Below, in pieces: positions 24,001 to 27,000 of a stretch of DNA of 64,000 bases; position 1 is the stretch's first letter, and each line of letters opens with the position of its first letter. The DNA is from a bacterium (GTDB lineage: Bacteria; Zhuqueibacterota; Zhuqueibacteria; Residuimicrobiales; Residuimicrobiaceae), in assembly GCA_035353815.1 (NCBI GenBank), contig DAOQAG010000010.1, forward strand, positions 14,054-78,053. The letters are read 5' to 3'. Position numbers: made by a program.

Positions 24001-27000
24001 CAGCGCCGCCGCCGCGCGAAAAGCTGGTGCAGAACACCAATCTGGGCATGTTCTTCAGCTCCGGTCCCTTTGAGCTGAAGGCGGGCGACACCCAGTTCTA
24101 CTCCATGTCGCTCCTCTTCGGCGAAGACCAGGCCCAGCTGGCCCGCGAGAAAAAAACGGTGCAGCAGATCTACAACGCCACCTATCAGTTCGCCCGTCCC
24201 CCCGACAAGTCGCGGCTGACCGCGGTGCCCGGCGACCACAAGGTCGTGCTCTACTGGGATGACACGGCGGAAAAATCCTGGGATCCCTTCCTGCAGGCGC
24301 ATGATTTTGAGGGCTACCGCATCTACCGCACCACCGATGCGGAATTCTCCGAGGCCCAGGTCATCACCGATTCCTACGGCAAGGCGCGCTTCCGCAAGTA
24401 CATCGCCGAGTTCGACCTCAAGGACGGCATCAAGGGACTGCACCCGATCGACATCGAGGGCATCAAATTCGACCTCGGCGAGGATACCGGTCTGCGCCAC
24501 TATTATGTCGATACCGATGTCGAAAACGGCCAGACCTATTATTACGCCGTGGTCCCCTATGACCGCGGCCTGGTGACCGTCACCTCGACCGGCGTGACCT
24601 CCGGTATATCCCCCTCCGAGGCTTCCAGCGTCATCCGCGTCAGCGCCGCCGGGGTGGTGGAGTACGTCGACATCAACTGCGCCGTGATCACCCCACGCGC
24701 GCCCGCGGCGGGGTACCAGGCGCCGCAGCTGGCGGGCGGGCTGCAGCACGATGGTCCCGGCACCGGCCAGCTCGAGGTGGAGCTGCTCGACGCTAATGCC
24801 CTGCAGGACAATGCCTCCTATGCAGTGATCTTTCATGACACCTCCGCCTTCGCGCTCAACCGCGGGGCGACCTTCGACTGCAGCAATATCACCTCGCAGA
24901 CCGCACTGCTCGAAGGGGCACAGCTGGAGGAGGGCCTCGGCATCACCCCGGTGCTGGAAGGCATGGTGATCCACGTCAACGGCGACACCGCTTGTCAGGT
25001 CATCGAAACCGAGACCGGATGGGTCAAGGGCCAGCATGGCTGGAGCTTCCGCGTCGGCAAGAATCCCAGTCTGAGCGGGCGCTTCGTCCCCTATCCCGCC
25101 GATTTCGAAATGACCTTTTATGATCACATCGTCGACACCTCGCAGGCCCTCCTCTTCGGCCAGCAGGCGATCGCCGTGCCCTTTATGATCTATAATACCA
25201 CCGAAGCGCGCGTGATGGATTTTCTCTTTGGCGACAAGGACAAGGATGGCCAGTTTTCGCCCGGGGATTCGGTCACCATCGTCACCGGTGTGCGTCTGGG
25301 TGAGCCGCTGCCCACCCCCAAATCCCGCTTCAAGGTGGCCTGGACCTTCTTTTACGATCCGGCGGCGGGAAGCAGCGACCGGCCGGCCGCCGGAGATATC
25401 TTCCGCATCCGCACCACCAAGCCCTTCCGCGACGGCGAAAGCTTCCGCTTCACGGTCCAGGGCGTGCGCGCAAGTGCCAGCCTGGCCAAGGATGGCCTGG
25501 CCGCCATCACGGTGGTGCCCAATCCCTATTGTGCCGCTGCCAGCTGGGAGCCGCGCAATCCCTTCCGCTTCGGCCGGGGTGAGCGCCGCATCTTTTTCAA
25601 TCACCTGCCCGCCCGCTGCACCATCCGCATCTATACGGTGCGCGGCTATCTGGTCAACAGCATCGAGCACGACAGCAGCATCGACGACGGTTCCGAGAGC
25701 TGGGACCTGGTCTCCAAGGACGGGATGGATATCGCCTTCGGCGTCTACCTCTTCCAGGTCGACGCCCCCGGCATTGGCACCCATATCGACAAATTCGCGG
25801 TCATCAAGTGACATGCCATTGAACATTTTACGGAATCGCTTATGAAAAAGATCGTCATGATAGCTTGCCTGCTGCTGACAGCTGCGGCGCTCGTCGCCGG
25901 GGATGTCGCCAAGGTCGGCGTCACCGCCGCCCCCTTCCTCTCCATCGGCGTCGGCGCGCGGGCGACCGGAATGGGCGGGGCCTTTGTCGGCACCGCCGAC
26001 GATGCCAGCGCGCTTTACTGGAACCCCGCCGGCATCGCCCGCAGCCGCGATATCCAGGTGCTGTTGATGCATACCCGCTGGCTCGCTGACCTGAGGTTCA
26101 ATTTCGCCGGATTCACCCTCCCCCTGGGGGCCTTCGGCAGCCTCGGGGCCTCGCTGACCTCCCTCGATTATGGCGACATGGCGGTGCGCACCACCGACCA
26201 GCCGGATGGGACCGGCGAGATCTTTTCCTCCAGCGATCTCGCCATCGGCCTCAGCTATGCGCGCAGCCTGACCGACCGCTTCTCTGTCGGTTTCAATCTC
26301 AAGTATATCACCCAGAGCATCTGGCATGAGAATGCGGATGGTTTTGCCATCGATTTTGGCACCCTCTTCGTCACCGGACTGCACGGGCTGCGCATCGGCG
26401 CCTCCTTGAGCAACTTCGGCACCGACATGCGCATGGAGGGCAAGGATCTCCTGGTCTATCACGACATCGATCCCAACATCCTGGGCAACAACAACCAGAT
26501 CCCGGCCGATCTCCAGACCGGGGAGTGGTCGCTGCCGCTGACCTTCCAGTTCGGTCTGGCCATGGAGCCCTGGAAATCGCCCCTGCACCGGCTGACGGTC
26601 GCGGCCGACGCCATCCACCCCAGTGATAATACCGAATCGATCAATCTCGGCATGGAGTACGGATTCCGGGAGATGCTCTTTCTCCGCGCCGGCTATCGCG
26701 ATCTCTTTTTGCGCGACCGCGAGCAGGGTCTCACCCTGGGGGCCGGCCTCGCCACCCGGAATCTCGGCAATGTGCTGATCCAGCTGGACTATGCCTATGC
26801 CGATTTCGGCCGTCTCGAGAACGCCCAGCGCTTCTCATTCAGCATGGCCTTTTGAGGAGCGGCATGGAGGCCATCGTCATTGACAAACCGGGGGCGGCGC
26901 AGATGATCGCCACGGCGGCGATCGATACGGCCAGCCTGATCGCCCGGCGCATCCCGCTGGCGGAGGTGCCCGGAATCCTGGCGCTGATGGCCGCGGGCGA

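Follow-up and report, generated by a model that had tools for sequence, protein, structure and literature searches.

The gene at 25842..26855 on the plus strand of the window (the whole stretch of DNA analysed, 64,000 nucleotides) encodes a genuine PorV/PorQ-family outer-membrane barrel and, judged by its gene context, belongs as a fixed component to a widespread three-gene unit, not a stray paralogue. The two genes that accompany it encode a TonB-dependent receptor and a large secreted partner, and this trio is apparently undescribed so far. Literature full texts yielded no description of it and no paper in which KSB1 and a type IX secretion system (T9SS) occur together; coverage was incomplete in both cases, so that the novelty of the trio is unproven. 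We give even chances to the reading that a three-part outer-membrane complex has the barrel as a dedicated structural subunit, which would hold a T9SS-delivered partner at the surface beside the receptor. The basis of this reading is genomic evidence throughout.

The initial annotation had placed a PorV/PorQ-like outer-membrane barrel at these positions, and we found an exact ORF there (337 aa, ATG start). The NCBIfam model NF033709 ('PorV/PorQ family protein') matched its product full-length: residues 28-337 covered model positions 2-326 of 326, and the score was 240.6 bits (E 3e-71), where 90 is the cutoff. Pfam PorV (PF19572) matched the N-terminal half only (49.7 bits, gathering score 27). 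Residues 1-20 form a signal peptide (MKKIVMIACLLLTAAALVAG; 25842-25901), residues 21-71 (25902-26054) a hatch-like N-terminal segment with a WNPAG motif, strongly conserved, and residues 72-337 (26055-26852) the barrel proper, all on the plus strand. The barrel proper has about 14 strands and ends in a terminal Phe, as do 55 of 58 family members. Homologues number more than 4,600, the nearest being 92% identical, and the best PDB match of the sequence was PorV (6h3i_F, E 4.5e-15). No second PorV-family copy was found within the 64-kb window by tblastn and Pfam scans. The spacer 3' of the barrel gene contains a mini-ORF without a Pfam match.

Does the barrel keep the same company elsewhere? In 47 loci, 6.8 kb or more of DNA upstream was available; once L027, which has an N-run, is set aside, a TonB-dependent receptor and a partner of ~1050 aa were encoded upstream of the barrel in 46/46 species-level loci. 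Conservation in syntenic loci, which the initial annotation had raised as a check, thus extended to every informative locus. We had considered L027 as a locus with only the partner's tail domain beside the barrel, and rejected it: the N-run is a masked stretch or scaffold gap. Reciprocal look-up from partner homologues led back to the trio in three of three cases, one of them in an Ignavibacteriales MAG. The trio was the locus core in 32 of 33 loci, around which CBM cargo, hydrolases, the ABC importer and LacI vary. In species-representative genomes we counted at least 509 barrel loci, and the records of trio loci are labelled KSB1/Zhuqueibacterota, Calditrichota, Ignavibacteriales, Marinimicrobia, Kryptoniota, WOR-3, Stahlbacteria and others. 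The barrel is multicopy (two or more) in at least seven assemblies. Paralogues inside one genome share just 48-61% identity; the copies are therefore old and locus-specific. Among the best 150 representatives, no barrel was fused to a receptor or partner in Rosetta-stone fashion. The initial observation, a PorV/PorQ-like barrel inside a glycan locus, is far beyond chance.

The gene directly 5' of the barrel gene, separated from it by a 30-nt spacer, encodes the partner, p1054 (22647..25811, plus strand; a 1054-aa ORF whose likely true start at 22656 gives 1051 aa, as in the homologues). It has a signal of the signal-peptidase-I type that ends A|Q and lacks a lipobox. A beta domain at the N terminus, conserved and with Asp-rich loops of Ca type, is followed by an FN3-like domain, a variable beta-sandwich region (~residues 680-950) and a C-terminal domain that is conserved. 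More than 4,000 homologues exist, every one annotated 'hypothetical', and neither Pfam (at E<=1) nor NCBIfam offered a family; a profile search of the PDB returned no relative. An AlphaFold2 model (pLDDT 77.5) placed a C-terminal sandwich at residues 955-1054. Full-length Foldseek gave generic FN3/Ig matches of low TM only, from which we did not name the protein; PorZ and PorU were among the matches at TM <0.12, unusable as evidence of kinship beyond the tail.

The C-terminal domain (25509..25808, plus strand; motifs VVPNPY, AYGVY and GKFAVIK) is, by profile comparison, homologous to the T9SS type A sorting domain, a 7-strand beta-sandwich, and divergent from it. Compared by hhalign with the type A tails of the same loci, it scored 95.6% (E 1.1e-8). 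Neither TIGR04183 nor PF18962 matched it even at E<=10, and three other proteins of the window passed TIGR04183 (cutoff 23) with 32.5, 28.3 and 37.9 bits. CHU_C and all other Pfam families were likewise without a match at E<=10. Family-wide, the domain ranks among the protein's most conserved stretches, and the tail is a distinct type, far more conserved than type A tails. An inserted loop, SWEPxxxxxGRGER (25524-25580, plus strand; residues ~960-978), is conserved and falls in a low-confidence part of the prediction. The tail also matched the PorZ model weakly (18.2 bits), as it did the C terminus of PorU. We rejected a special link to either protein, because an ordinary type A tail of the window scores similarly or higher. 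We likewise set aside locus L083, in which tandem partner genes with identical tails accompany one barrel, because the identity spans the whole C-terminal half and the DNA as well (599/600 nt); the pair is a recent duplication, a gene conversion or a co-assembly artefact.

The receptor gene (19864..22632, plus strand) has a longest ORF of 922 aa and a likely true start at 19918 (MRLKPVLW), which gives 904 aa, as in its relatives. Pfam assigned an N-terminal CarboxypepD_reg domain, a Plug and a TonB_dep_Rec_b-barrel. It is outside the SusC/RagA group, with just 46.8 bits for TIGR04056 (cutoff 368), and among the locus proteins scanned with Pfam none belonged to a SusD-like family.

Divergence is shared across the three outer-membrane genes, which behave as one block (Spearman 0.81-0.90); ABC genes from these loci served as control and gave lower, cross-block values of 0.60-0.72. 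Barrel and receptor were the tightest pair (Spearman 0.85-0.90; partial 0.74-0.81 after controls), and the receptor is the hub of the block. Contrary to the covariation expected, the partial correlation between the barrel and the partner's C-terminal domain was 0.13, and that between the barrel and the whole partner, with the receptor controlled for, was 0.01. Barrel divergence follows the receptor and not the partner's tail, and hence barrel-to-tail contact draws no support from covariation; the interface may be nearly invariant, or the contact may be nonexistent. Because co-divergence is strongest between barrel and receptor, a barrel fixed as a subunit within a receptor complex fits better than a free shuttle.

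Perhaps, then, the barrel is a receptor accessory independent of type IX secretion, one that packs against the receptor, as BamG does against BamA, and stabilises, assembles or gates it? We consider this unlikely, though worth weighing, and we think it equally unlikely that the partner is attached to the receptor or the cell surface by other means, as this explanation would have it. The tight barrel-receptor pairing and the loss of the barrel-partner correlation once the receptor is controlled for both speak for it. It also has a precedent in BamG, a 14-strand barrel of FadL fold that is fixed to BamA, binds BamH by its extracellular loops and has a conserved N terminus (PMC12578637). The barrel matched BamG weakly, both as a model (NF053685, 21.3 bits) and as a structure (9hiv_F). 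However, 21.3 bits is far under the BamG cutoff of 250, whereas the PorV/PorQ family model is strong, and two beta-barrels could share rate behaviour without contact. The BamH-binding loops of BamG are not conserved, in contrast to the predicted loops of the trio barrel, and the genomic context is unrelated. Finally, the partner has a homologue of the sorting domain but lacks a lipid anchor, and some holder is therefore needed.

The barrel lies inside a glycan locus, as the initial annotation had recognised. All of the following genes are on the plus strand. A LacI-family regulator (15290..16294; Pfam LacI, Peripla_BP_3; also in loci L004, L090 and L091) stands at the head. It is followed by an 1177-aa protein with three CBM4_9 domains and a type A T9SS sorting domain (16324..19857; Pfam CBM_4_9, FlgD_ig), whose tail is ordinary type A by TIGR04183 (32.5 bits, cutoff 23). 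Downstream of the trio is a candidate glycoside hydrolase/phosphorylase of GH65C/GH94-like (alpha/alpha)6 type (27028..29541; 837 aa), with 24.7 bits for Pfam Glyco_hydro_65C and weak GH94 and GH100 matches. An ABC sugar importer (29549..32694; Pfam SBP_bac_1/8, BPD_transp_1) comprises a solute-binding protein (29549-30868) and permeases (30986-31888 and 31885-32694), and is present in 21-23 of the 33 trio loci. Next is a second large type A cargo (34228..37764; 1178 aa; weak Pfam CBM96; TIGR04183 28.3 bits, cutoff 23), whose tail is 37.6% identical to that of the CBM4_9 protein. A PpiC/SurA-like protein (37795..39258; Pfam Rotamase_2), the start of whose ORF is inflated by a tandem repeat, recurs in L001, L089 and L091; in Marinimicrobia-type loci a homologue (~462 aa, E 1e-9 to 1e-14) is encoded between the partner and barrel genes. 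A GH130 protein of the beta-mannoside phosphorylase/hydrolase family (39373..40314; Pfam Glyco_hydro_130, 213.7 bits; 15 of 33 trio loci) points to the substrate class of the locus. GH38 and GH3 are also encoded there (Pfam).

The barrel gene had been described as following two cargo genes directly. That is right for the 1054-aa gene and wrong for the CBM cargo gene, because the receptor gene lies between (the order is CBM cargo, receptor, p1054, barrel). A dedicated attachment factor, as had been suggested, fits the partner, present in all 46 informative loci, and does not fit the CBM cargo, which is variable and has an ordinary type A tail. This bears on a wider role for the barrel as a locus-wide shuttle or attachment factor for all T9SS cargo, the CBM4_9 protein and other type A proteins included, which we regard as improbable. 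Type A cargo genes do occur in 28 of the 33 trio loci, and the CBM4_9 gene stands just 5' of the trio in the window and its close relatives. Yet that gene is an accessory, variable member (L004 has a different 826-aa protein in its place), and the identity and presence of type A cargo vary by locus, whereas the partner is invariably there. The tails of CBM and other cargo pass TIGR04183 as ordinary type A, and the partner's tail is of another, far more conserved type. Moreover, type A tails are served in Bacteroidota by the general PorV (PMC12618676).

Pfam scans found no T9SS core genes within the 64-kb window; we infer that the host has the system because three proteins of the window are TIGR04183-positive. 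It is a loose premise that genes of the PorV family normally accompany the core secretion genes. In P. gingivalis, porV adjoins porU, and porQ is encoded on its own. Cognate pairs of barrel gene and cargo gene have already been described for PorP/SprF with type B cargo (PMC12618676).

The AlphaFold2 model of the barrel (pLDDT 64, pTM 0.64) has about 14 long strands and leaves the N-terminal segment unmodelled. The best Foldseek match was PorV (8gl6_F; E 6e-12, TM 0.60), followed by 6h3i_F, and FadL, TodX, TbuX and CymD were strong structural matches. The WNPA hatch motif is retained, and UPF0164 matched weakly in Pfam. The FadL-type structural matches, the motif and the weak Pfam match would suit a FadL-like diffusion channel with a lateral opening for a hydrophobic or amphipathic compound (e.g. 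acylated or methylated sugar derivatives), an explanation that we find decidedly improbable. Fold and NPA motif do not discriminate, because PorV has both. The FadL/OmpP1 assignment by HMM that the initial annotation had named as refuting its reading was not obtained: Toluene_X (PF03349, FadL/OmpP1/TodX) reached 18.4 bits over residues 41-72 only, under its gathering score of 29.7, and NF033709 was far above cutoff. FadL, TodX and OmpP1 share the fold and the hatch motif with the trio barrel; unlike it, they are about 420 aa long and lack its glycan-uptake and T9SS-cargo context. Obligate pairing with a receptor and a protein that bears a C-terminal domain would be unexpected for a simple channel. 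Conservation by predicted topology was 0.78 in the N-terminal segment, 0.71 in surface loops, 0.64 in strands and 0.58 in periplasmic turns, on a loop topology taken from FadL and PorV and a moderate model whose most conserved, N-terminal part is unmodelled. The conserved predicted surface loops suggest a protein interface on the barrel, which also speaks against a channel.

That the barrel is the host's housekeeping PorV or PorQ, in a glycan locus by chance, is very improbable: the family is right and 337 aa is near the PorQ model length of 335, but the product is below every equivalog cutoff (PorV NF033710, 89.5 bits against 250; PorQ NF033711, 102.5 against 220, with residues 7-196 only aligned; PorV2 NF052325, 99.2 against 325), at least 509 loci occur in species-representative genomes, and at least seven assemblies have multiple copies, the informative ones all in the receptor-partner context. 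The same sub-equivalog scores, multiple copies and single context uphold the view that the barrel is dedicated to its locus.

How might a held partner work? In the three-part complex, the partner crosses the inner membrane by Sec, as its signal-peptidase-I signal and its lack of a lipid anchor indicate, and would then cross the outer membrane through the type IX system by its special C-terminal domain, as the type A homology suggests. This domain would stay uncleaved. By analogy with PorQ-PorZ, PorV-PorU and the PorP/SprF barrels with type B cargo, the cognate barrel would capture it with its conserved surface loops and hold it non-covalently. That the barrel may bind a sorting domain has indirect support in its obligate adjacency to a gene whose product ends in a homologue of that domain. 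The barrel would pack against the receptor and so place the partner's variable beta-sandwich region over it. There the partner could catch oligosaccharides freed by the ordinary type A cargo of the locus, its CBM and hydrolase proteins, and the receptor would take up the caught sugars. The rest of the processing would fall to the ABC importer and to the GH130 and GH65/94-like enzymes of the periplasm, under LacI control. The trio would then be a functional replacement of SusC/SusD that does without SusD.

Several known systems come close. In the P. gingivalis T9SS attachment complex, a PorQ/PorV-type barrel keeps a surface protein via its uncleaved C-terminal sorting domain (PMC10202324). The PorQ-PorZ and PorV-PorU barrels resemble ours in family (NF033709), 14-strand FadL-like fold and, for PorQ, size. 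Unlike them, the trio barrel is under both equivalog cutoffs, is multicopy within genomes, always accompanies a TonB-dependent receptor and belongs to nutrient-uptake loci with non-Bacteroidota labels; its partner is an uncharacterised protein of ~1050 aa, not PorZ or PorU, which it would hold by analogy. The PorP/SprF-like barrels of Flavobacterium johnsoniae, and PorP-PG1035 of P. gingivalis, follow the same genetic logic of a cargo (or partner) gene and then its specific cognate barrel gene, the type B CTD cargo being kept on the surface (PMC12618676, PMC9143113). PorP/SprF is of another family, with no match to our barrel at E<=1 in Pfam and NCBIfam; the trio's tail is related to type A, not type B, and its third obligate member is a TonB-dependent receptor, whereas PorP/SprF systems have a PorE-like peptidoglycan anchor. 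SusC/SusD (RagA/RagB) shares with the trio a CarboxypepD_reg receptor and a neighbouring surface-protein gene at the head of a regulated hydrolase locus, as well as several paralogous copies per genome. In contrast to SusC/SusD, the trio has a non-SusC/RagA receptor, no SusD-like gene and an obligate barrel, and relies downstream on ABC import. Its partner, unlike SusD, is all-beta and non-lipidated, with a sorting-domain homologue.

PorV-family barrels are general carriers or attachment-complex parts of Bacteroidota type IX secretion, and SusC/SusD is the accepted model of glycan capture in that phylum. The trio, of which a PorV-family barrel is a fixed member, occurs in thousands of sequences, which come from little-studied phyla of sediments, hot springs and the sea, and may be the way in which several non-Bacteroidota phyla assemble surface sugar-capture machines. 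Somewhat short of an even chance, in our estimate, is the broader proposal that several non-Bacteroidota phyla of the FCB group share an undescribed glycan-uptake core, in which the T9SS-delivered surface partner of a TonB-dependent receptor is permanently held by a dedicated PorV/PorQ-family barrel. If so, this core would be a SusD-free, secretion-dependent counterpart of SusC/SusD, and would add a third cognate class of sorting domain and barrel to type A-PorV and type B-PorP/SprF. If the trio proteins form one complex, nutrient import would be mechanistically coupled to protein secretion. A role would also be found for two families of 'hypothetical proteins', both very large: each has, among the candidates scored, more than 4,000 clusters at 90% identity. 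The trio would in that case provide a marker to predict glycan-utilisation loci that SusD-based detection misses.

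The barrel, a PorV/PorQ-family outer membrane protein of 337 aa, is encoded from an ATG start at 25842..26855 on the + strand. It belongs to a series of + strand genes that begins with a LacI regulator (15290-16294) and continues with a CBM4_9 protein of 1177 aa carrying a T9SS tail (16324-19857), a TonB-dependent receptor with a CarboxypepD_reg N-terminal domain (19864-22632; hereafter the receptor) and a 1054-aa protein without a Pfam family (22647-25811; the partner). Spacers of 14 and 30 nt separate receptor, partner and barrel, which we call the trio, and 172 nt follow the barrel gene. 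Next come a GH65C/GH94-like enzyme, an ABC sugar importer, a 508-aa protein without a Pfam or NCBIfam family (32691-34217; probably 469 aa), a T9SS cargo of 1178 aa, a PpiC/SurA-like (Rotamase_2) protein (37795-39258) and a GH130, all on the + strand; GH3, GH38 and a GH2/42-like enzyme lie in the neighborhood. The 64-kb window holds neither a second PorV-family gene nor any T9SS core gene.

Several other features of this region were recorded. A strong hairpin at 19865-19896 (14-bp stem, 10 G-C pairs, then a T-rich run) lies between the CBM4_9 stop and the probable true receptor start (19918); judged by its sequence, it may serve as a partial terminator or as an attenuator, splitting expression of the CBM cargo from that of the trio. 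The 172-nt spacer past the barrel gene (26856-27027) measures 55 nt in a 92%-identical relative (L006); it holds a sigma-70-like promoter match at 26880-26907 and a mini-ORF of 55 aa (26865-27032; MEAIVIDKPG...GKVQVLP) with no Pfam match. Tandem repeats occupy three gene-leader regions: 37781-37910 (MRQVKPTMRHVKLK... repeats; 21/42-nt units, x6/x3), 32707-32817 (30-nt unit, x3.6) and 42941-43173 (122-nt unit, x1.9). The first artificially lengthens the longest-ORF start of the PpiC-like gene, and the second that of the 508-aa gene, whose homologues have 469 aa. The 2878-aa ORF at 53893-62529 (+), with 11 SdrD_B repeats, many CarboxypepD_reg/SpaA-like and DUF11 domains and a type A tail (the T9SS sorting domain class of TIGR04183/PF18962), looks like a very large adhesin-type T9SS cargo of the cell surface. 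At about 46000-54000, GC falls from about 0.63 to 0.47-0.52, and minus-strand genes there encode a carbamoyltransferase, an SxtJ-like protein, a GDSL lipase/acylhydrolase and a methyltransferase; horizontal acquisition may have brought in this stretch as an island for glycan or lipid modification.

Among the candidates scored, barrel homologues numbered more than 4,600 at E<=1e-5, typically 58-70% identical; the nearest (92%) came from JGI metagenomes, and the named ones from KSB1, Calditrichia and Zixibacteria. Near relatives repeated the order receptor, unannotated ~1050-aa protein, barrel. A scan with one genome per species yielded at least 509 loci encoding a barrel relative. Of these, the best 80 were retrieved, with record titles that include KSB1/Zhuqueibacter, Calditrichota, Neomarinimicrobiota, Kryptoniota, Stahlbacteria, WOR-3, Delongbacteria and others; names such as Cytophagia, Bacteroides sp., Deferribacteres and Gemmatimonadota are only what the record titles call the MAGs. 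The initial annotation had pointed to syntenic loci as the place to look for conservation of the barrel gene, and there receptor and partner homologues both lay upstream on the same strand in 46 of the 47 loci with at least 6.8 kb of upstream sequence. In the sole exception (L027), a run of Ns stands immediately 5' of a partner C-terminal fragment; hence, that locus is cut off at this point. The partner gene directly adjoins the barrel gene in the majority of loci. Five Marinimicrobia-type loci have a ~462-aa PpiC-like gene, homologous to 37795-39258, inserted between the two, and one locus (L042) a type A cargo gene. Reciprocal look-ups from partner homologues found a PorV-family gene directly downstream in 3/3 cases, including an Ignavibacteriales MAG.

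Where both flanks were available, the trio was present in 32 of 33 loci. The variable components of these 33 were type A cargo (28), ABC parts (21-23), GH130 (15), LacI (11) and GH65/94-like enzymes (8); a homologue of the 508-aa protein was kept downstream of the ABC permeases in 19. Seven assemblies among the best 80 of the at least 509 loci have two loci each, and barrel paralogues inside one genome are only 48-61% identical. A barrel profile searched at 50% clustering matched 2,168 representatives at E<=1e-30 and 23,449 at E<=1e-3; no fusion occurred among the best 150, all being stand-alone proteins. We conclude that the three-gene linkage is obligate across phyla and exists in multiple old paralogous copies.

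PpiC/SurA-like genes recur in these loci (L068, 8583-9968; L074, 8514-9905; L083, 8547-9938), and the ~462-aa Marinimicrobia-type homologue has a lipoprotein-like N-terminus; the protein could be a fourth functional member, for example a chaperone. L083 also carries tandem partner genes (2072-5305 and 5329-8550) whose N-terminal halves are ~80% and C-terminal halves 100% identical (599/600 nt at the DNA level), a pattern that therefore reflects recent duplication, gene conversion or a co-assembly artifact. On the 1-Mb contig of L090, the barrel gene (11257-12052) is called as two fragments of 114 and 152 aa, probably a frameshift by sequencing error or a pseudogene.

All 4,066 partner matches among the candidates scored are named "hypothetical" and are without a precomputed Pfam domain, and profile search found no relative of solved structure. 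The family begins with a signal-peptidase-I-type signal ending A|Q-R-x-P-D-P-N. Its members have no lipobox, which rules out a SusD-like surface lipoprotein. Conservation is high, at 0.6-0.84 per block, for residues 40-680, drops to 0.47-0.65 for 680-950 and recovers to 0.73-0.85 for 960-1054. In the AlphaFold2 model (pLDDT 77.5), the protein is all-beta and multidomain: the N-terminal domain bears Asp-rich loops, one domain is FN3-like, the variable region folds into well-predicted beta-sandwiches, and the C-terminus forms a further sandwich; Foldseek returned low-TM generic matches only. The last 100 residues (the tail, 955-1054) contain the motifs VVPNPY, AYGVY and GKFAVIK and match neither TIGR04183 nor PF18962. 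Three other tails of the window, from the CBM4_9 protein, the 1178-aa cargo and the 2878-aa ORF, pass TIGR04183 (32.5, 28.3 and 37.9 bits; cutoff 23), and profile-profile comparison finds the partner tail homologous to them (95.6%, E 1.1e-8). What sets it apart from these type A tails is an inserted loop, SWEPxxxxxGRGER, which is conserved and predicted with low confidence, as one would expect if a binding partner were needed to order it. By these sequence features, the partner is a non-lipidated protein with a distinct, conserved sorting-domain homologue.

The surface loops of outer membrane proteins are usually their most variable part. Over 58 barrel sequences, with topology inferred from FadL and PorV, mean conservation was 0.78 in the N-terminal hatch-like segment, which carries a WNPAG motif, 0.71 in predicted extracellular loops, 0.64 in strands and 0.58 in periplasmic turns. 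That the predicted loops are conserved here suggests a conserved protein contact at the cell exterior.

Across 58 non-redundant trios, barrel identity tracked receptor identity (Spearman 0.85, partial 0.74) much more closely than that of the partner tail (0.58, partial 0.13) or N-terminal domain (0.62, partial 0.02), by a crude measure in which pairwise values are non-independent, two barrels may share rate behavior and the short tail hardly varies. In 28 control loci that also bear the ABC importer, the three outer membrane genes formed one block (0.81-0.90) and the three ABC genes another (0.75-0.83), with lower correlations between blocks (0.60-0.72). Controlling for the ABC genes left barrel-receptor at 0.81, receptor-partner at 0.72 and barrel-partner at 0.59; controlling for the receptor as well reduced barrel-partner to 0.01. 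Hence, the three genes evolve together to an extent that shared locus history does not explain, and the receptor is their hub.

We propose that the partner would be exported by the type IX system and keep its tail, held by the barrel much as retained tails are held in PorQ-PorZ, PorV-PorU and PorP/SprF with type B cargo (PMC10202324, PMC12618676, PMC9143113). The barrel would pack against the receptor, as BamG does against BamA (PMC12578637), and the partner's variable sandwiches would hand oligosaccharide to the receptor. We give the full mechanism about an even chance. The main rival keeps the three-part complex and makes the barrel a receptor accessory that binds no tail; we consider this rival unlikely. 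Co-divergence gives direct barrel-to-tail contact no independent support. The initial annotation had suggested a locus-dedicated shuttle or attachment factor for the CBM and receptor-partner proteins, and this is supported in part: a dedicated attachment factor suits the receptor's partner and does not suit the CBM cargo. A shuttle serving all cargo of the locus is improbable. Co-divergence favors a fixed, receptor-centered complex over a freely diffusing shuttle, and the barrel probably belongs to such a complex as a fixed subunit.

A FadL-type channel is slightly less probable still. FadL, TodX, CymD and BamG do follow the PorV chains 8gl6_F and 6h3i_F (TM ~0.6) among the closest matches to the AlphaFold2 model of the barrel (~14 long strands; pLDDT 64, pTM 0.64). 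The FadL/Toluene_X Pfam score is 18.4 bits, under the gathering score of 29.7, and the FadL/OmpP1 assignment that would have overturned the original call is therefore not found. That call, a PorV/PorQ-like barrel, was exact in its ORF and is confirmed: NF033709 (NCBIfam, "PorV/PorQ family protein") matches along its full length (240.6 bits, cutoff 90, E 3e-71), placing the protein in the broad family; in Pfam, UPF0164 and PorV (49.7 bits, gathering score 27) also match; the sole solved-structure relative by sequence is Flavobacterium johnsoniae PorV (6h3i_F, E 4.5e-15); and a signal peptide and a final Phe are present. A housekeeping PorV or PorQ is the least credible reading. Scores lie far under the cutoffs for PorQ (102.5/220), PorV2 (99.2/325), PorV (89.5/250) and BamG (21.3/250), and the barrel belongs to none of PorV, PorQ, PorV2, PorP/SprF, BamG or FadL proper.

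Cognate pairs of barrel and cargo genes are already known, so the principle is not new. In the literature, covered in part by full-text search, we found no description of a barrel of the PorV/PorQ family tied to both a TonB-dependent receptor and a protein with a special tail, a negative that concerns the multi-copy arrangement outside Bacteroidota and is absence of evidence only; in the Melioribacter and Kryptonia genome papers, Por sorting domains are the only such mention. The trio locus differs from the SusC/SusD core: the receptor is not a SusC/RagA member (46.8 bits against 368), there is no SusD, and the partner, in contrast to SusD, is not a surface lipoprotein. Tentatively, and with somewhat less than even confidence, we suggest that the trio may be a TonB uptake core that lacks SusD, depends on the T9SS and is widespread among FCB phyla.
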